Of a DNA stretch of 64,000 bases, positions 2,290 through 64,000 are shown in pieces (positions within the stretch are counted from its first letter, which is position 1; each line of letters opens with the position of its first letter). The stretch is from assembly GCF_003334385.1 (NCBI RefSeq), contig NZ_QOWN01000001.1. One strand, given 5' to 3'. This stretch comes from Escherichia coli (GTDB lineage: Bacteria; Pseudomonadota; Gammaproteobacteria; Enterobacterales; Enterobacteriaceae). The notes under the pieces are model-generated. The model did not search any database and was not told the origin of the DNA. It saw only the letters and a program-made list of their open reading frames with translations. A program made the position numbers and the translations under genes.

Positions 2290-2457
2290 CCGATGAAGCG
2301 GCGGTAGAAGTGCCGCCGCAACAAAGACAAATGCCTGATACGCTTCGCTTATCAAGCCTGCGTATTGATTCATAATTTATTGAATTTGTAGGGTGATGAA
2401 TCGCATCCGGCAGGAAGGTAGGGTAACCTGAAATGGCGGTCTTCTCACTGCCGCCTT

Positions 2458-4539
2458 TTACGCATTCGAGTAACGTTCCGTCTCCGGCATCCAGCGTTCT
2501 ATCAGGGCTTTTGCCTGTTGTGGGTAACGTTCGTGAATATGGCGTGCCAGGCGCTGAACTTCCGGGATCATCGCCTGATCGCGCAGTAAATCCGCCACTT
2601 TAAATTCAGCATTACCCGTCTGACGCGTGCCTAACAATTCGCCAGGGCCGCGAATCTCCAGATCTTTTTGCGCAATCACAAAACCGTCGTTACTGTCGCG
2701 CAGCACTTGCAGGCGAATTTGCGCCGTTTTAGAAAGCGGCGTTTTGTAGAGCAGCACGCAGTGAGAAGCCACCGCGCCACGACCTACGCGCCCGCGCAGC
2801 TGGTGTAACTGCGCCAGACCCAGACGCTCCGGGTTTTCGATAATCATCAGACTGGCGTTAGGCACATCAACGCCGACTTCAATAACGGTTGTGGCAACCA
2901 GCAGGTGTAGCTCACCTTGTTTAAACGACGCCATCACCGCCTGTTTCTCGGCAGGTTTCATCCGCCCGTGTACCAGGCCAACGTTCAACTCTGGTAGCGC
3001 CAGTTTCAACTCTTCCCAGGTAGCTTCCGCCGCCTGCGCTTCCAGCAATTCCGACTCTTCAATCAACGTACAAACCCAGTATGCCTGACGACCTTCAGTT
3101 ATGCAGGCGTGGTGCACGCGGTCAATGATGTCGGTACGGCGGGTATCAGGAATAGCGACCGTAGTCACTGGCGTGCGGCCTGGCGGCAGCTCATCTATCA
3201 CCGAGGTATCGAGATCGGCATACGCAGTCATTGCCAGCGTGCGGGGGATCGGCGTGGCGGTCATGATCAACTGATGCGGATGGAAGCCCTGCTGCTGGCC
3301 TTTCTCCCACAATGCCAGACGCTGATGCACGCCAAAACGATGCTGTTCGTCGATAATCACCAGCGCCAGGCCGTTAAACTGCACCTGTTCCTGGAAGATG
3401 GCGTGTGTACCGACAATCATCTGCACCTGACCGCTGGCGATGGCTTCCTGCTGTGCCAGCCGTGCTTTACCTTTCTGCTTACCGGCGAGCCAGCCCACTT
3501 CGATACCGAGCGGTGCAAACCAGTTGCGGAAGTTATTGGCGTGCTGCTCGGCGAGTAATTCGGTTGGTGCCATCAATGCTACCTGTTTGCCGTGGGCAAT
3601 CGCACGCAACGCGGCGAGGGCGGCGACCAGCGTTTTACCGGAACCTACATCGCCCTGCACCAGACGCATCATCGGCACATCCAGCGCCATATCGCGCTCG
3701 ATCTCCGCCACTACGCGTGCCTGTGCGCCCGTTGGCTTGAACGGTAAGGCGGCGAGGAGTTTATTTTTCAGCGTGTCATTGGCGCTCAGCGGCTGGGCAT
3801 GAAAACGCTGTGCTCCGGCACGTAAGGCTAACATGCTGAGGTTGTGCGCCAGCAGTTCTTCCAGAATCAGACGACGTTGCGCCGGATGCTGCCCGGTTTC
3901 CAGATCGCTAAGCTGTAGCGTCGGTGGCGGGCGGTGCAAAGTGCGCAACGCTTCCGGTAGCGTCATCATTCCTTGTGACAGTTCCGGCGGCAGGAGTTCT
4001 TCAATGGCGCAGGTGTCGAGCAGATCCAGCGCCTGGTCGGTTAATTTACGCAGCGTGGCCTGCTTTACGCCTTCCGTTGTTGGATAAACCGGCGTGAGCG
4101 TTTCCTGTAATTCTGGCGTGCTGAGATCGCCCTGCACGCGGTATTCCGGGTGGATCATCTCCGCACCATATTTACCGCGCTTTGCTTCGCCATAAGCCAG
4201 TACACGGCGGCCCGCCGCCAGGCTATTTTTCATTGCCGCGCTGAAATTGAAAAAGCGCATGGTGAGGATGCCGGAACCGTCGCTGATCTGGCAGGTCATC
4301 ATCCGCCGACCGCCGAAGGAGATATTGCAGTTCAGCACTTCGCCTTCCACCGTGGCATAAACGCCCGGCAGTAGTTCTCCGATGGGGTAGAGATGGGTGC
4401 GATCTTCGTAGCGCAGGGGAAGGTGTAAGAGTAGATCCTGCACGGTATGCAGGTTGATTTTCGCCAGTTTGTTACTAAGTGCTGCGCCAACGCCCGTTAG
4501 GGAACTGAGTGGGACAGCATCTAACAGGCGACCTTTCAT
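2458..4539 (-). CDS. recG: ATP-dependent DNA helicase RecG
   Basis: ORF track frame 2458..4572; start moved to internal Met (MKGRLLDAVPLSSLTGVGA...) giving 693 aa; helicase motifs (GSGKT, DEQHRFG) present. Confidence 0.95.
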   Translation of the reverse strand: MKGRLLDAVPLSSLTGVGAALSNKLAKINLHTVQDLLLHLPLRYEDRTHLYPIGELLPGVYATVEGEVLNCNISFGGRRMMTCQISDGSGILTMRFFNFSAAMKNSLAAGRRVLAYGEAKRGKYGAEMIHPEYRVQGDLSTPELQETLTPVYPTTEGVKQATLRKLTDQALDLLDTCAIEELLPPELSQGMMTLPEALRTLHRPPPTLQLSDLETGQHPAQRRLILEELLAHNLSMLALRAGAQRFHAQPLSANDTLKNKLLAALPFKPTGAQARVVAEIERDMALDVPMMRLVQGDVGSGKTLVAALAALRAIAHGKQVALMAPTELLAEQHANNFRNWFAPLGIEVGWLAGKQKGKARLAQQEAIASGQVQMIVGTHAIFQEQVQFNGLALVIIDEQHRFGVHQRLALWEKGQQQGFHPHQLIMTATPIPRTLAMTAYADLDTSVIDELPPGRTPVTTVAIPDTRRTDIIDRVHHACITEGRQAYWVCTLIEESELLEAQAAEATWEELKLALPELNVGLVHGRMKPAEKQAVMASFKQGELHLLVATTVIEVGVDVPNASLMIIENPERLGLAQLHQLRGRVGRGAVASHCVLLYKTPLSKTAQIRLQVLRDSNDGFVIAQKDLEIRGPGELLGTRQTGNAEFKVADLLRDQAMIPEVQRLARHIHERYPQQAKALIERWMPETERYSNA

Positions 4540-55557: not shown

Positions 55558-57471
55558 TTACTTACGACCTGCCAGCAGTTCCAGCACTTCATCCACGCTG
55601 GTGGTGTGTGCCAGACGCTCGATGACGGACTCATCATCCAGTGCATTGGTCAGGCTGGTGATAACCTGAATGTGCTCGTTGTTACGGGCAGCAATACCAA
55701 TCACCAGACGGGCAATGTCATCTTCTTCTTCACCGAAGCGCACGCCTTCCGGGTACTGGCAGAACACGACGCCCGTTTTCAGTACGCGATCTTTCGCTTC
55801 AACCGTACCGTGTGGCACCGCGATAGACTCACCCAGATAAGTCGGGGTCAGTTTTTCACGATCCAGCATCGCCTGAACGTATTCCGGCTCAACGTAACCG
55901 CCTTTCACCAGCTGCTCGCCAGCAAAACGAATCGCTTCTTCTTTGGTTGCCGCTTTGCGACCGAGGAAGATGTTCTCCGCGCCTAGCTTGAACAGGTTAG
56001 CACTGGAATCGTCAAAGCTGTCTTTCAGGCTGTCTTTTACTTTCTCTTCGTTTGCCGTGTGGCGTTGGGCAGCAACCAGACGTTCGGTCAGGCTGGTGTA
56101 CAGGCCGCTGTCGAGGAAGTTGGTCAGCGAAATATGCTGTGCCTGCGGAACCTGGCGCATAGCGCGTTCGGTCAGGTCACGGTGAGTGATGACGAGGTCC
56201 ACATCTGGCGGCAGGTTGTTGATCGCGCTGTTAGTAACAGAAATCTGCGACAGACCTGCATCCTGAATTTTCTTACGCAGAACGCCTGCGCCCATCGCAC
56301 TGGAACCCATACCGGCGTCACAGGCAACGATGATTTTACGTACGTGGCTCAGGTCGTTAGTCACATCGCCAGCAGACAGCGGAGATGCGCCTTTAGACTC
56401 AGCTTTCATGTCCTGCATACGACGAGTTGCTGCTTCAATATCATCTTCTTCTTTCACTTTGCTGGTTTTCAGCAAAATAGCAGAGACAACGAAGGAGACA
56501 GCCATCGCCGCACACACACCCGCGATGTTAGCGAAGTAAGCACCTTTTGGTGTCATCGCCAGTACAGCAAGGATAGAACCCGGAGACGCCGGAGAAACCA
56601 GACCACCGCCCAGGATAGTCAGCGTGAACACGCCAGTCATACCGCCGAGGATGACTGCGAGGATCAGACGCGGATTCATCAGCACATACGGGAAGTAGAT
56701 TTCGTGGATACCCCCCAGGAAGTGGATGATTGCCGCACCGCCCGCAGACTGTTTAGCGCTACCACGACCAAAGAACATGTACGCCAGCAGCACGCCCATA
56801 CCTGGACCTGGGTTAGCTTCAATCAGGAAGAAGATTGATTTACCCAGTTCATGGGACTGCTGAATACCCAGCGGCGAGAAGATACCGTGGTTAATGGCGT
56901 TGTTGAGGAACAGGATTTTCGCCGGTTCAACAAAGATAGACGCCAGCGGCAGCATGTCATGGACAACCATGAAGTTAACGCCCGCAGCCAGCATTTTGGA
57001 CAGGGCTTCAACAATCGGGCCAATGCCGAGGAATGCCAGAATAGCGAGGATCATCCCGATGATGCCTGCGGAGAAGTTATTCACCAGCATCTCAAAACCG
57101 GATTTGATCTTACCGTCTACCCAGCGGTCGAAGTGCTTAATGCACCAGCCGCCCAGCGGACCTGCAATCATAGAACCGAGGAACATCGGCATGTCTGCGC
57201 CGACGATAACGCCCATGGTGGTGATGGCACCGACTACGCCGCCACGTTCGCCGCCTACCAGCTTACCACCGGTATAACCGATCAGCAGCGGCAGGAGATA
57301 AGTGATCATCGGCCCGACCAGCTTCGCCAGCGTCTCGTTCGGTAACCACCCTGTTGGAATAAATAACGCGGTGATGATACCCCACGCGATAAACGCGCCG
57401 ATATTTGGCATCACCATGTTGCTGAGGAAACGACCAAAGCTTTGCACTTTGATCTTAATATCGGATGACAT
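55558..57471 (-). CDS. mtlA: PTS mannitol-specific EIICBA component
   Basis: 637-aa ORF recognised as MtlA. Confidence 0.96.
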
Positions 57472-57614
57472 AAAAACACCCCTTCTTATGTTTGCTGTCG
57501 CGCAGGCTGGAAGCCCGAGGTTTTTTGTTAATGTGGCGGCAGAGGTAGCCGGACCTTGTAGATACTGCGAAATCTGGCACTGAATCGGTTAACTGTCCAG
57601 TCGACGGCCTTTTG

Positions 57615-57791
57615 TGTGATATCAATCACATAAATATAGGGGGTAGAGAGGTAATTGACGTGACGTTCATCACAAAACGCTTGTGTAAAAAAGCAACAAG
57701 GCGGCGATTTTCGCTAAAAATGGCATTTAAATGTGAGTAGTGTCACATTTTTGTTTTGATGGTTTGTTGAATCTTTGTGATCTGAATCACA
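57615..57791. promoter_or_regulatory. Cluster of CRP-type palindromes in the long mtlA upstream region
   Basis: TGTGA-N6-TCACA matches at 57615-57630 (perfect), 57659-57674 (CGTGA...TCACA), 57732-57747 and 57776-57791. Confidence 0.65.
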
Positions 57792-58007
57792 AGATATTTT
57801 CTTACGGCGTTCACCTGATGTGATCTACAGCATGTTATGCCTTCGTCATACAATCGTTATGTAACTAAGCAACTCATCACCTCTAAAAATTATTCTTTGG
57901 TGTTATGGCGAGAATCGCGAACCCGGATTATTGTCAAAATATCAGCCTGACTCCCTTCTGGCTGCCAGCCCAAAAACAACACTGATAAACGTGAATCCGA
58001 GGCAGAT

Positions 58008-58370
58008 ATGTTTCTAAACTATTTCGCGTTGGGAGTGCTGATCTTCGTCTTTCTGGTGATTTTTTATGGAATCATCGCGATACATGACATCCCTTATCTG
58101 ATTGCCAAAAAGCGCAACCATCCCCATGCCGACGCTATTCATACGGCGGGCTGGGTGAGCCTGTTTACTCTGCATGTTATCTGGCCGTTTCTGTGGATCT
58201 GGGCGACGCTCTATCAACCGGAGCGTGGCTGGGGTATGCAGTCACATGTTGCGTCGCAGGAGAAAGCGACTGACCCGGAAATCGCCGCACTTTCTGACCG
58301 AATTTCCCGGCTGGAGCATCAACTCGCCGCCGAGAAAAAGACTGACTATTCCACGTTCCCGGAGATCTAA
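58008..58370 (+). CDS. yibI: Small inner membrane protein YibI
   Basis: 120-aa ORF with two hydrophobic segments. Confidence 0.85.
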
Positions 58371-58372
58371 TT

Positions 58373-59509
58373 ATGGATCTATTGATTGTTTTAACTTACG
58401 TGGCGCTGGCGTGGGCGGTCTTTAAAATCTTCCGCATTCCGGTAAATCAGTGGACGCTGGCGACGGCGGCGCTGGGAGGCGTGTTTCTGGTGAGTGGTTT
58501 GATTTTGTTGATGAACTACAACCACCCTTACACTTTTACCGCGCAAAAGGCAGTGATAGCGATCCCTATCACGCCACAGGTGACGGGAATTGTTACTGAA
58601 GTCACTGACAAGAATAATCAGCTTATTCAAAAGGGCGAGGTGCTTTTTAAGCTCGACCCGGTTCGTTACCAGGCGCGAGTTGACAGACTTCAGGCTGACC
58701 TGATGACGGCGACGCATAATATAAAGACGCTGCGTGCGCAGCTCACTGAAGCGCAGGCCAACACCACCCAGGTTTCAGCGGAGCGCGACCGTCTGTTTAA
58801 AAATTATCAACGTTACTTGAAAGGCAGCCAGGCGGCGGTGAATCCGTTCTCGGAACGTGACATCGACGATGCGCGGCAAAATTTCCTCGCGCAGGATGCG
58901 CTGGTGAAAGGCTCGGTGGCGGAGCAGGCGCAGATCCAGAGCCAGCTCGACAGTATGGTTAACGGCGAGCAATCGCAGATTGTGAGCTTAAGAGCGCAAC
59001 TTACTGAAGCAAAATATAACCTTGAGCAGACTGTCATTCGCGCGCCGAGCAATGGCTACGTTACTCAGGTACTGATCCGCCCAGGTACATACGCAGCTGC
59101 CTTGCCGCTGCGTCCGGTGATGGTCTTCATCCCCGAGCAAAAACGGCAAATTGTCGCCCAATTTCGGCAAAACTCGCTGTTACGTCTGAAACCCGGCGAT
59201 GATGCGGAAGTGGTGTTTAACGCGCTACCTGGGCAGGTGTTTCACGGCAAACTGACTAGTATTTTACCTGTCGTGCCAGGCGGTTCTTATCAGGCGCAGG
59301 GGGTATTGCAATCATTAACGGTCGTGCCCGGCACGGACGGTGTGCTGGGAACCATTGAACTGGACCCTAACGATGATATCGATGCCTTACCCGACGGCAT
59401 CTACGCCCAGGTGGCGGTTTACTCCGACCATTTCAGCCATGTTTCGGTGATGCGGAAAGTGCTGCTAAGAATGACCAGCTGGATGCATTATCTTTATTTG
59501 GATCATTGA
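58373..59509 (+). CDS. yibH: HlyD-family membrane fusion protein YibH
   Basis: 378-aa ORF with N-terminal TM segment and coiled-coil; start 3 bp after yibI stop. Confidence 0.88.
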
Positions 59510-59968
59510 GGGGGAGGGGGGAGATTATGGAACTTTGCTCCTTGTAAGGACTAATTATTTTTGCATATTACTTCATTAGCTGCGATGATTTTTCTTTAAT
59601 ATTCATTATGTTAATAAGTTCTGGATGAGTGTGCTCTCATTGGATTTTTTATCCGTCTTGTTCTGCCGCAGGATGAGACTATACATCGTCGAGATCGCAA
59701 TGATGATATGAGTTGTTCCTCCTGCGACGGCTCTAATCAAAAAAGAGCAGGAGTGCTTTTCCATCTATTGCGATGATGGCTTTATTATCTGAAGGATGAC
59801 AGTCACATTTAAAAAATATTTAATCTATAGATCACAATGTAGGGTCATGGAATATATGTATACAACTATTTTCTTCTTCACTTTTAATTATCGTATTCAT
59901 TATAAAACTAAGTTAAAAAAACTCCTGGAGAGTGAGTTATTAATATATTTTTAAATAAAATTAAGTTA

Positions 59969-60406
59969 TCATTCATCGATGCACTTTATAGAATCATCAA
60001 TGGCCATAATAGTACTATTAACTCTCAATTTTATATTTTTATCATCACTACAAATATTAACTGAATTTATATCAATGATTTTTTTATTCTTATCTTTTAT
60101 TTTATTTACTGTTTCAATGCAATCAGCGGCAAGTTGGAGTGGATTTAGATTTTTCAGATATGGTCTTATGATCTTTCCCTTACTTAATAAATAGCATGTA
60201 TAGGATTCGGAAAGTCCAGCATCTATTTTGTACCTCATTATATTAGATAAGGATGTGAGAAATTCCTTGTTATCATTCGCAGCCATATATGCCAGTCCGA
60301 GTTCAGCCTCTGCGGCCTTACAGGCAAAATAGCTTAGTGAACACGCTTTTCGTCCCTCTTTAGTACTGGCTGATATTAGTGCCCATAATATTGCTTTGTC
60401 TGCCAA
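59969..60406 (-). CDS. Hypothetical protein, candidate immunity partner of the decayed third Rhs C-terminal cassette
   Basis: 145-aa frame with TTG start and no in-frame ATG upstream; AT-rich; sits directly downstream of the decayed toxin remnant. Confidence 0.4.
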   Translation of the reverse strand: MADKAILWALISASTKEGRKACSLSYFACKAAEAELGLAYMAANDNKEFLTSLSNIMRYKIDAGLSESYTCYLLSKGKIIRPYLKNLNPLQLAADCIETVNKIKDKNKKIIDINSVNICSDDKNIKLRVNSTIMAIDDSIKCIDE

Positions 60407-60494
60407 ATCTAACTCTCTCTGAAATTGTCTTGCAGTAACTGCACTCGCAGAAATAGAGAAAAAAATACAATTGTTAATAACCTTGCCATATTTT

Positions 60495-61110
60495 TTAGTC
60501 CGTAACTGTTAATGTGCTATCTGGCTCTGAAAATATTAACTCATTTAATTTTTGCATGTCATTAGATAAACCAGTTATACAACCCTCGGAACAGAATCGA
60601 GGTCCTAAAGACGGACCAAAAGCGTTTAAACAACTATGTATTGAAAATCCATTGCGATTATAAGTTCCTGTATTAACTGACGGTACTAATCGTATGCCGT
60701 CAGGTTTTCTATTGCTTGCTCCCGGGTCATTAACATTCCAACTCCATAGGCCTTGAGGTATTGGCCATCTATTTATAAATGTGTACAACGGGGATTATTT
60801 TTACATTGCATATTATTACCAGAAGCGACTGGAATACTAAGCACATCATAAAAATTATCATCACATGGTATATCTGAAACACACGAAAGCATACCTAAAG
60901 TTATGCTGTATAAACAGGTGGCTAATCCCAAGGGGATCGATTCCAGAAATCGGGTTCAACGGATACTGATAAAAATTCCACCTACCTTCCAGCCCAATCG
61001 GAGCCTGAGTGTTATACCGCCCCTGCTGCGGTTAATGTTACCGATAATAGTTATAGTACAGCCCTGATTCATCATCATACTACTGCTGCGGCAGTCTGAT
61101 GAACTATTGC
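60495..61110 (-). pseudogene. Decayed orphan Rhs core-end plus C-terminal toxin remnant
   Basis: My translation of 60951-61110 gives [45 protein letters not shown], a stop-interrupted copy of the Rhs core end; followed by a 97-aa TTG-start frame at 60495..60788. Confidence 0.6.
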
Positions 61111-61112
61111 TT

Positions 61113-61574
61113 TTACGGATTCTCCTTATTCTTCCTTCTATCCATTCGCTTTAGCTTTTTGAGCTCTTGAAGTTTGCTCTTTGCATCAATATTACCGTTA
61201 TTTACAGCGAATTCCATCCAATAAATAGCTCTATTCAAATTATAATATTCTGATAATGTTGGATTTGTATCTGATAAAAAGACCCCATAATTAAACTGCG
61301 CTGTAACATTCCCCTGAGATGCTGATCTTTCCAAGAATCGCAATTGTTTGTAAATGTTATTTTTAGTAAAGCAGTAATATTGATATAGTCGAAATGATGC
61401 CTCTGAATCACCATGTTGTGATTTATACTTCAGTTTCATCAACTTTTCTTCACTTAAATCATAGGTCATTGCTGTAGACCCCATCATACTTTCGTTTTGT
61501 TTTATTTTCACATCAGCACCATGCAATTGACAAATAAAAGAGAAATAAAAAAATAGTAACAAGCATGCTTTCAT
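61113..61574 (-). CDS. yibG: Sel1/TPR-like repeat protein with signal peptide; putative immunity protein for the YibJ toxin domain
   Basis: 153-aa ORF, ATG start 12 bp after the yibJ stop; N-terminus MKACLLLFFYFSFICQLHGA is signal-peptide-like; Sel1-like repeats. Confidence 0.8.
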   Translation of the reverse strand: MKACLLLFFYFSFICQLHGADVKIKQNESMMGSTAMTYDLSEEKLMKLKYKSQHGDSEASFRLYQYYCFTKNNIYKQLRFLERSASQGNVTAQFNYGVFLSDTNPTLSEYYNLNRAIYWMEFAVNNGNIDAKSKLQELKKLKRMDRRKNKENP

Positions 61575-61585
61575 ACATCTACAAC

Positions 61586-62566
61586 CTATCTTATATCACT
61601 GGGTTTTTCTGGCGTACCTTGCATATTAGAAATGGGGTGCCCAGATGGCCCATATGTTATCCAATTACCAAGGTCTTTTGTTGTTATAGCCATTAGATCC
61701 TTATTTGAATTAAGGTTCGTTGGTGCTGTTAGCACTGTATCCATTTTTAACTTACCATTAGTTCCTCGCCCCCACCACGTCCATAGCGTGTCAGGTCCTA
61801 TTACATTTGTATGTAACTCTTTAGCTAATTGGCTAGCAAATGAATTTTGTCCTTTACCTGTATTACAAGAAAATAACCAAACTGTCATCCCATCTTTATA
61901 ATTCCCATCAAATTTAATTAGATATGCTAGATCTTTAGCTGTCATGATACTGCGCGTTGCGGATTCAATAGATGTGGGGGTACCATGCCCCCCGATTGTG
62001 AAAACGCCTGGGATATTAATCTCATCAGCTACAGAATGGATAAGATCACTTTCGGGGTATAAATTTATATCAACCAAACCTTGCGGATCTACATTTATGA
62101 CCGGATTCAACGGATACTGATAAAAATTCCATCCCCCCTTCAGTCCAATCGGATCCTGAGTGATATACCGCCCCAGCAGCGGGTCATAATAGCGGTGGCG
62201 GTTGTAATACAGGCCGGACTCCTCATCATACTGCTGACCCGGCAGGCGAATGAGCTGCTGCAGATGATGCGGGTTCTCATCACTCAGCAGGTTGCCCCAT
62301 TCATCATATTCTGCGCACCACGCTGTTGCCCCTTCCGTGCTGATGAGCGCCAGCGGCAGGCCGCGATGGTCGCAGTGGTACAGGTGGATTTTTCGCGCCG
62401 GCGTGTACACCGGGTCCATCTGGTTTTGCATCTGCTCCACGGTCAGGCCGCACGATGCCAGCCAGCGGCGGCTTTCCTCACTCACCCGGTCAGCCAGGAT
62501 TTCACTTTCCAGCCGGTCGAGCATCTGCACCGTGCCGGCGGGAATCCCCCACTGTGCATAGGCAAC
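61586..62566 (-). CDS. yibJ: Orphan Rhs fragment: last ~150 aa of Rhs core plus a distinct ~160-aa C-terminal toxin domain
   Basis: Frame open from 62566 (6 bp after yibA stop) with no N-terminal region; contains [57 protein letters not shown] then an unrelated tail; ORF track shows it from GTG 62530 (314 aa). Confidence 0.8.
62103..62250. repeat. Rhs core 3'-end repeat, copy within yibJ
   Basis: Near-identical to 63856-64000 (GGATTCAACGGATACTGATAAAAATTCCATCCCCCCTTCAG...). Confidence 0.85.
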
Positions 62567-62571
62567 TCACG

Positions 62572-63414
62572 CTATGAACGCTTCAGCTTATCAATAGCGG
62601 AAGTTATAATTTCATTGTCATCAAACTTGTACAACATAGTATCTAAAACAGGAAGTAGCGTTTTATCACCTAATTCACCCGCAGCTTCAATGATATCATC
62701 ATAAACAGTATTTTTTTTTAACTCATCGCATAAAACAGATAAAACCCTTTTATCTTTTCTGTAGGAAAGTCCGATTATTGCTTCAATACGGACTTCCTCA
62801 TTTTTATCCTGAAGCATCTCCACAAAACAATCCCTAATATCACTATTATCATATTTATTGATATTTATTGCAAATGCGGCCCAGTTTCTGACATCTCCAT
62901 TTGGATCTTTTAACAGATTAATCAATAGTGGAATTGTTGCTTTATCATTGATAACAGAAATAGCAAATGCTGTAGCACGTCTGACATTAGTCGATTTATC
63001 AAAAGCAGTAATTTGAGATTGTTCTACTATTTTAGGTGAATAAATTGGGTTTTTCTTGCATCGCTGAGCCGTTGACTCGATTGCCGTAGCTCGAACGCAA
63101 GCGCTCTTATCATTCAATGCCATATTGTTCAAAATATTAAAAACATTATCTTCGCATTTTTTGCAAATTTTTATTTGCCCGAGTATAAATGCTCCGATAT
63201 CTCTACGGATATAATTTTTATCAGAGCAGAACTCAATTGCCAATCTAACAGCGTCTTGCCCACCTCTTAACTGTAATACTCTGGCAGATGAAATCCTTTT
63301 CAAGGAATTGTGATCATCAAGTAAGCGAAATAATTCATCATCATTTAGTTTCTTACATTGATTATATAAACCATACTCTTTACTTGCCTTTCTTTTCTGG
63401 TATGTATTTGACAT
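62572..63414 (-). CDS. yibA: HEAT-repeat protein YibA; putative immunity protein for the RhsA C-terminal domain
   Basis: ORF track frame to GTG 63429; start at ATG 63412-63414 (MSNTYQKRKASKEYG..., 280 aa) with GGAGG 8 nt upstream; begins 20 bp after rhsA stop. Confidence 0.9.
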   Translation of the reverse strand: MSNTYQKRKASKEYGLYNQCKKLNDDELFRLLDDHNSLKRISSARVLQLRGGQDAVRLAIEFCSDKNYIRRDIGAFILGQIKICKKCEDNVFNILNNMALNDKSACVRATAIESTAQRCKKNPIYSPKIVEQSQITAFDKSTNVRRATAFAISVINDKATIPLLINLLKDPNGDVRNWAAFAININKYDNSDIRDCFVEMLQDKNEEVRIEAIIGLSYRKDKRVLSVLCDELKKNTVYDDIIEAAGELGDKTLLPVLDTMLYKFDDNEIITSAIDKLKRS

Positions 63415-63434
63415 TGCAGGAACCTCCACAAGGG

Positions 63435-64000
63435 CTATCTTTTTTTATCGTTTGACTGTCTGGAGTGACGACAATTCCAGGCTTTCTGTGTGCTTTTTGC
63501 ATCTTTAGCACTAATATCACCACAATCAATTAGTTCCTGAAGTACGTCACATCTGTCGGGTTTTTTCCCATCACTCCAGAATCTGTCATTTATTATGTCA
63601 TTGACACGATCAGTTATCCCTGTGTCTGCAACATTTCCACGAGAAGCTATCATTGTTATATCTAATGCTAGTCCCGGATTATTCAATATTAGAGAGTCAA
63701 ATATTCTTTGTGATGCTGTATCGTTCCACCATTTTGTCAATGCTTTTGCAGCATTATCATCTGCTTGCTGCTGTGCAGGGCTTTTGGGCCATGGAATTGG
63801 CAAGGGGAATGGTCTAGGAAAAACTTCTAACCCCAGAGGATCTGTATTCGTAACTGGATTCAACGGATACTGATAAAAATTCCATCCCCCCTTCAGCCCA
63901 ATCGGATCCTGAGTGATATACCGCCCCTGCAGCGGGTCATAATAGCGGTGGCGGTTGTAATACAGGCCGGACTCCTCATCATACTGCTGCCCCGGCAGGC
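63435..64000 (-). CDS. rhsA: RhsA 3' end: end of core including the DPxGL boundary plus variable C-terminal domain; 5' part beyond window end
   Basis: Frame open to window edge; my translation of 63864-64000 gives [57 protein letters not shown], continuing into [14 protein letters not shown]...; stop TAG at 63435. Confidence 0.9.
63856..64000. repeat. Rhs core 3'-end repeat, copy in rhsA proper
   Basis: Near-identical to 62103-62250 and related to the decayed copy at 60951-61110. Confidence 0.85.

Follow-up and report, generated by a model that had tools for sequence, protein, structure and literature searches.

What kind of element do the variable tip of rhsA and the adjacent gene yibA form at the far edge of a 64,000-nucleotide stretch of Escherichia coli DNA (contig NZ_QOWN01000001.1 of assembly GCF_003334385.1, in the following called the window)? 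Both genes lie on the minus strand. The rhsA reading frame is open from the end of the window (64000) to a TAG stop codon at 63437-63435, and the 5′ part of the gene and its upstream region, which fall beyond the 64-kb window, were inferred from the K-12 locus. The pair is the textbook rhsA-yibA pair of E. coli K-12, of which the identity, the toxin family, the immunity partner and the toxicity with its rescue are already known. It very probably constitutes an Rhs-borne toxin and immunity cassette, in which the C-terminal tail of RhsA is released after a DPLGL motif to act in the cytoplasm, and in which the HEAT-repeat solenoid of YibA binds and thereby neutralises it. The features of the cassette are as follows.

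63828..64000, minus strand: 3′ end of the conserved rhsA core, running off the window; established by translation; GC content 0.49
63908-63894, minus strand: DPIGL, aspartyl-autoprotease motif 17 residues before DPLGL
63842-63828, minus strand: DPLGL, second aspartyl-autoprotease motif and last core residues before the tail
63438..63827, minus strand: RhsA-CT, the 130-residue polymorphic C-terminal tail, with predicted cleavage after DPLGL
63717..63827, minus strand: N-terminal module of the tail, proline-rich at first and then helical, recurring in Rhs tips with other toxin domains
63453..63677, minus strand: Ntox34 (PF15606) domain, tail residues 51-125, from the Pfam match and the signature residues
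63435..63437, minus strand: TAG stop codon of rhsA
63423..63427, minus strand: Shine-Dalgarno sequence GGAGG of yibA, 8 bases ahead of the ATG
62572..63414, minus strand: yibA, HEAT-repeat immunity protein (Imm-HEAT) of 280 residues, from NF007244 and 1OYZ

The ATG of yibA, at 63414, is located exactly 20 bases past the rhsA stop codon, and no terminator-like site is found between the two genes on the minus strand. Because of the 20-base gap, the strong ribosome-binding site and the lack of a terminator, yibA is probably co-transcribed with rhsA. The GC content, which is 0.58–0.61 in the core remnant of the downstream gene yibJ and 0.49 at 63800-63949, drops to 0.30–0.41 across the tip and yibA (0.36–0.41 for the tip alone), and this drop is the classical Rhs core/tip junction. 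A preliminary description of this DNA, which left the minus strand unstated, had placed yibA 20 bp downstream of rhsA with a strong GGAGG site, and the coordinates confirm both. The span of 63435-63863 that it gave for the RhsA domain needs amendment at one end: 63435 is the end of the stop codon, but 63863 is a mechanical start of an open reading frame, i.e., a TTG leucine codon 12 codons before the tail, in a gene that continues off the window.

The tail that follows DPLGL comprises 130 residues, with seven prolines within the first 21. The other 109 residues include 16 Asp and nine Asn, and the last 30 residues of the tail have an isoelectric point of 9.6. The preliminary description, which had noted a proline-rich linker, an Asp/Asn-rich domain of ~110 residues and a basic C-terminus, is thus correct on composition, but it counted two cysteines where there are three, at positions 93, 102 and 119, and of these the family conserves C93 and C119 alone. 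It had further stated that the activity of the tip was not evident. Neither sequence nor fold assigns one, so this judgement holds, but the description missed that the domain belongs to a named family with an Imm-HEAT partner: the Pfam family Ntox34 (PF15606) covers tail residues 51-125 with an E-value of 1.6e-43 and 147 bits, over model positions 1-80 of 80. Ntox34 was defined by Zhang et al. 2012 (PMC3482391) as an all-alpha domain with the signature GNxxD, K, C, C, K and WxCxH, an RHS carrier and an Imm-HEAT partner, and the table in the same paper lists it among the domains predicted, not shown, to be ribonucleases (RNases). The signature residues are all present in the tail, as G64, N65, D68, C93, K115, W117, C119 and H121. 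The tail has no match in NCBIfam or PADLOC, and a word-index protein search returned just fragments for the Ntox34 domain and none for the linker.

Ntox34 is a rare domain. A scan of 1.84 billion representative proteins gave only 41 representatives at the 50% identity level (E ≤ 1e-3). In an alignment of 19 diverse members the residues N65, T113, K115, C119 and S122 are invariant, and G64, D68, C93, L96, A116, W117 and R123 are nearly so. The published signature overstates the conservation, since C102 and the histidine of WxCxH are variable in this alignment: most homologues have Ser, Asn, Glu or a gap in place of C102, and many members carry P, Q, N, G or R at the position of H121.

An AlphaFold2 model of the tail, calculated with the 19-sequence alignment, contains helices only and has a mean pLDDT (predicted local distance difference test) of 82, with about 95 for residues 65-120. 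The Ntox34 domain is predicted to consist of three helices (residues 69-86, 92-102 and 107-116), and the helices of the preceding module are predicted from residue 17 onward. In the model the GNxxD motif is situated in the loop ahead of helix 1, C93 opens helix 2, and the invariant K-A-W-x-C-x-x-S-R run lies at the end of helix 3 and beyond. The Foldseek comparison of the tail proposed in the preliminary description gave nothing similar in the Protein Data Bank (PDB; best E-value 4.4), and in AFDB50 the relatives are Ntox34 proteins only, from E. coli, Neisseria, Snodgrassella and Xanthomonas; no structural relative beyond Ntox34 was found in either database. Searches of the PDB chains with the tail sequence and with the 19-sequence profile gave best E-values of 0.74 and 0.031, respectively, both for unrelated proteins.

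The first part of the tail has a distribution of its own. In five representatives (P0013, P0019, P0022, P0024 and P0032) the match is confined to tail residues ~1-50, with DPLGL-E and the residues after it in common, and the proteins then run on into unrelated C-termini, one of which is Ntox16. Judged from these alignments, the linker is a shared module that opens several enterobacterial Rhs tails and is separate from Ntox34, a point that the preliminary description had missed; it possibly serves in packaging within the shell or in entry into the target cell. In other Rhs proteins, the proline-rich and helical tail start precedes at least four unrelated toxin C-termini.

YibA scores 466.5 bits on the NCBIfam model NF007244 (PRK09687), of which the cutoff is 275, and it aligns over residues 1-280 to residues 1-280 of PDB entry 1OYZ, deposited as 'hypothetical protein yibA' (E-value 5e-183). 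On identical DNA, RefSeq annotates both rhsA and yibA, naming the tip 'polymorphic toxin type 34 domain-containing protein' and YibA 'HEAT repeat domain-containing protein'. The pairing of the RhsA tip with a HEAT-repeat protein proposed in the preliminary description is therefore upheld by the annotation of identical DNA and by the match to 1OYZ over 280 residues. Hydropathy analysis reveals no hydrophobic segment in either YibA or the tail, and no signal peptide in YibA.

In all 11 other Ntox34 loci examined, the next gene encodes a YibA homologue. These loci comprise two long metagenomic Rhs genes, four further metagenomic contigs and five contigs of named taxa, i.e., Neisseria lactamica, Snodgrassella alvi, Xanthomonas hortorum and two labelled Streptococcus. 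The YibA-like genes start 0–150 bases downstream, and their products are collinear with YibA, with blastp E-values of 2.6e-79 to 9e-7. As a YibA homologue follows Ntox34 in every other locus that was read, the Ntox34/YibA-like pairing is a property of the family and is kept across distant bacteria. Two of these cassettes are closely related in sequence: positions 320-1501 of the Neisseria lactamica contig (L006) and 2403-3595 of a contig labelled Streptococcus infantis (L007), both carrying Ntox34 with a HEAT-type immunity gene, show 93.6% nucleotide identity over 1.2 kb, and a similar cassette is located midway along a 470-kb Streptococcus oralis contig (L008). Either the cassette has moved between oral bacteria belonging to different phyla, or contigs have been mislabelled.

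Over its 393 bases the tip matches rhsA of E. coli K-12 MG1655, BW25113 and DH5alpha with 100% identity, and window positions 56436-64000 show 99.92% identity to the MG1655 locus over ~7.6 kb, with five mismatches and one gap. In MG1655 the gene order is selB-selA-yibF, rhsA (1377 residues), yibA, the rhs fragment yibJ and yibG, followed by a further rhs fragment, a frameshifted Imm57 gene, yibH, yibI and mtlA; the window carries the same right-hand part of this order. The tip was found in 1792 of the 5426 complete E. coli genomes, with at least 99% identity in 1791 of them. When co-occurrence was counted, the tip was present in 1752–1792 genomes and the tip together with yibA in 1761. The E. 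coli rhsA tip and yibA are also present on a 1.5-kb contig (QFQM01000625.1) in a metagenome-assembled genome named 'Flavobacterium psychrophilum', with a tail protein that is 100% identical. This contig is almost certainly an E. coli contamination of the bin.

A direct record of toxicity exists for this very tail. According to Poole et al. 2011 (PMC3150448), who recount Vlazny & Hill 1995, the C-terminal region of RhsA is toxic in E. coli and yibA neutralises it; the phenotype reported there is a block of the recovery from stationary phase. The same source bears out the toxin-immunity arrangement recognised in the preliminary description, and the toxicity and rescue experiment that the description proposed had thus already been published in 1995. 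A second member of the family, Nte2 of Neisseria cinerea, is toxic in the cytoplasm of E. coli and is rescued by Nti2; its 'RNase' label comes from the NCBI domain database (PMC8263058).

The carrier has the features of an Rhs shell with an autoproteolytic end. The full-length K-12 rhsA frame (1377 residues, extending outside the window) matches RHS_repeat and DUF6531, which together indicate a YD/RHS-repeat shell. At the end of the core the DPIGL motif is followed by 17 residues and DPLGL, after which the tail begins with a Glu (codon at 63827). The end of an Rhs core is recognised by a pair of DPxGL motifs (PxxxxDPxGL) with 17 residues between them, beyond which a variable tail begins (PMC8636562, PMC3150448); the catalytic Asp is in the second motif and the toxin begins at the next residue, and the spacing of the motifs is the same as in the experimentally cleaved Rhs1 (PMC8636562). 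By analogy, the released fragment would begin at the Glu encoded at 63827. The N-terminus of K-12 RhsA, encoded at L011, 3260-4759, outside the window, matches DUF6531 with an E-value of 6.8e-18, and PAAR_motif with an E-value of 0.24 and over model positions 51-69 of 70 only. No vgrG or eagR is present beside the Rhs gene in the K-12 or Sakai loci, where the upstream neighbours are selB-selA-yibF. The delivery domain of the neighbourless K-12 Rhs protein may be truncated.

Taken together, a mode of action can be proposed. The tail would be cut off after DPLGL within the Rhs shell and, in strains with a type VI secretion system (T6SS), would be injected into neighbouring cells. A cytoplasmic site of action is expected, given that the tail is toxic when expressed in this compartment and that its immunity protein lacks an export signal. 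YibA would protect the producer by wrapping around the small helical domain and sequestering it. The invariant polar cluster of N65, D68, T113, K115, S122 and R123 may form the active or binding site, with a structural role for C93 and C119. A nucleic acid, with RNA as the likeliest one in line with the prediction of Zhang et al., is put forward only tentatively as the target, at somewhat less than even odds; this choice rests on the cytoplasmic site of action, on the cluster of invariant Lys, Arg, Ser, Thr, Asn and Asp residues, on the basic tail and on the prediction in the literature.

Several observations weigh against this proposal. The accessible literature contains no Ntox34 member with a demonstrated biochemical activity, and 'RNase' is a database prediction. 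There is no His or Glu among the invariant residues, H121 being often replaced, and the folded core, of just ~55–60 residues, is small by the standards of enzymes. The delivery of the toxin is also in doubt, in view of the marginal PAAR match and the absence of adjacent vgrG or eagR genes in the K-12 locus. Finally, a single-chain model of the tail fused to YibA through a (GGGGS)6 linker, built from 11 paired homologues in place of an AlphaFold-Multimer run, has a predicted template modelling score (pTM) of 0.67 and gives no sign of a confident docking, though it is uninformative about the interface: the toxin has a pLDDT of 66–83, below that of the domain alone, and its tail is disordered.

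The size and the residue pattern of the domain are equally relevant to an explanation in which Ntox34 is not a nuclease. It would then be either a stoichiometric inhibitor, binding an essential cytoplasmic target via the three-helix core and the invariant basic tail, or an enzyme with a new chemistry around C93/C119 and the Asn/Asp/Lys/Arg cluster; in either case the YibA solenoid would serve as a sequestering cage. This explanation, to which we give roughly one chance in three, is in agreement with the tiny core and orphan fold, the lack of a conserved His or Glu, the two conserved cysteines, of which C93 opens helix 2, and the very small family (41 representatives among 1.84 billion), as well as with a reported phenotype that is mild and specific to stationary phase. 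Moreover, predictions of this kind have been overturned before: Ntox15 is a DNase and RES an NAD-degrading enzyme, despite their presence in the same table of predicted RNases. On the other hand, almost all effectors injected in small copy number are enzymes, there are metal-independent RNases that lack a His, e.g. RelE, the basic C-terminus (pI 9.6) suits nucleic-acid binding, and no candidate target for an inhibitor has been identified. Nuclease and non-nuclease modes are about equally likely. The four positions C93, C102, C119 and H121 might suggest themselves as a zinc site, either of a metal-dependent nuclease or of a zinc-finger-like binder, given their CCCH spacing of C-x8-C-x16-C-x-H in the E. 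coli tip; yet only two of these potential ligands are conserved, which makes this extremely improbable. A conserved CCCH metal site was rejected, as C102 and H121 vary in the 19-member Ntox34 alignment.

A different question is where the cassette acts. It is less likely than not that, in this K-12-like strain, it acts mainly inside the producer, as a module resembling a type II toxin-antitoxin (TA) system that slows or blocks growth under stress, and not as an injected weapon. In Salmonella, internal promoters drive the expression of Rhs tips, which act like type II TA loci (PMC7043789), and the block of stationary-phase recovery described for the present tail (PMC3150448) would fit such a role, as would the marginal PAAR match with no adjacent T6SS genes in the K-12 locus and the retention of the tip with yibA, at 99% identity or more in 1791 genomes. 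However, no sigma-70-like site is found on the minus strand within 63435-64000, where the total number of sites is below the expectation from shuffled sequence, and no ribosome-binding site is evident ahead of the internal Met58. The K-12 tail is, moreover, still fused to a full delivery-type Rhs protein, and TA-like and delivery roles can coexist. By analogy with Salmonella, a TA-like role may add to delivery, or replace it, in K-12-type strains. The neighbourhood, rich in rhs fragments and with a frameshifted Imm57 gene, could also suggest that the rhsA tip is a decaying, functionless relic in this lineage, all the more so as K-12-type strains have no working T6SS. This is very improbable: both reading frames are intact, the tip is at least 99% identical in 1791 of its 1792 carriers and co-occurs with yibA, and the expressed tail is reported to be toxic with yibA protective. 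A toxin and immunity cassette on an Rhs carrier is the interpretation adopted here.

Downstream of yibA the window contains two further genes of the same array.

61586..62530, minus strand: yibJ, orphan rhs fragment consisting of a retained core 3′ end and a different tip; RHS Pfam match only
61113..61574, minus strand: yibG, Sel1-like repeat protein with a hydrophobic, signal-peptide-like N-terminus

The product of yibJ is 97% identical over 314 residues to the C-terminus of the full-length Rhs protein ECs_4470, encoded at the same locus in E. coli O157:H7 Sakai. In Sakai, yibG directly follows the full-length Rhs gene and the locus has no Ntox34/yibA cassette; yibJ and yibG (61113-62530, minus strand) thus correspond to the main tip/immunity pair of the Sakai Rhs (L016, 5009-9711). 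Since Sakai carries the yibJ-type tip on a full-length Rhs protein, without Ntox34 and yibA, the Ntox34-yibA cassette appears to have displaced an older tip into an orphan position. YibG is presumed to be the immunity partner of the yibJ-type tip, and its hydrophobic, signal-peptide-like N-terminus hints at a periplasmic site of action for the yibJ-type toxin. The yibJ-type tip has no match in the version of Pfam-A that was used, and RefSeq calls it DUF8616. Further downstream, at 59969-60788 on the minus strand (also at L011, 9749-10860), a short rhs core fragment with an internal stop codon is accompanied by a frameshifted gene of the Imm57 family; the two make up one more decayed remnant of a toxin/immunity pair, the third in this array.

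As a feature of this genome, the rhsA-yibA pair matters little, its toxin family being named, the structure of its antidote solved and its toxicity and rescue published in 1995. What interest is left is narrow and lies in the toxin domain. Ntox34 is rare, has no structural relative outside its own family, and its chemistry has not been established in the accessible literature. Because it is a rare structural orphan that occurs in the most tractable of organisms, together with a crystallised immunity protein, it is an easy and well-posed target for finding the activity of a toxin, although not a surprise.

The cassette can be compared with several known systems. The CdiA-CT/CdiI systems are alike in having a modular C-terminal toxin past a demarcation motif, an adjacent immunity gene and displaced orphan pairs downstream, but they use a different carrier and route (two-partner secretion, VENN motif), and the rhsA tip is not a member of this group. 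Photorhabdus Rhs1-Tre23, RhsA of Pseudomonas protegens and Tse5 of P. aeruginosa share with it the YD-repeat shell, the DPxGL-x17-DPxGL autoprotease, an encapsulated toxin and adjacent immunity; their toxins are unrelated (an ADP-ribosyltransferase, a pore former and others) and, unlike that of Ntox34, their activities are known. Another is Nte2 of Neisseria cinerea, with the architecture PAAR-Rhs-Ntox34, in which the same toxin family resides on an Rhs carrier and is countered by the downstream gene, that of Nti2; the Neisseria Ntox34 domains show about 65% identity to the domain in the window. Nte2 has a clear PAAR domain and a T6SS-positive host, whereas in RhsA of the K-12 type the PAAR match is only marginal, and T6SS genes are absent from the vicinity. 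Within Ntox34 (PF15606) as a family, the tail conforms in its full-length match to the hidden Markov model, all signature residues, the all-alpha prediction, the Rhs carrier and the downstream HEAT gene. With the extension 'ext-a1' of K-12 RhsA (b3593) and its partner dsORF-a1/YibA, finally, the cassette is one and the same, and nothing of substance differs between them.
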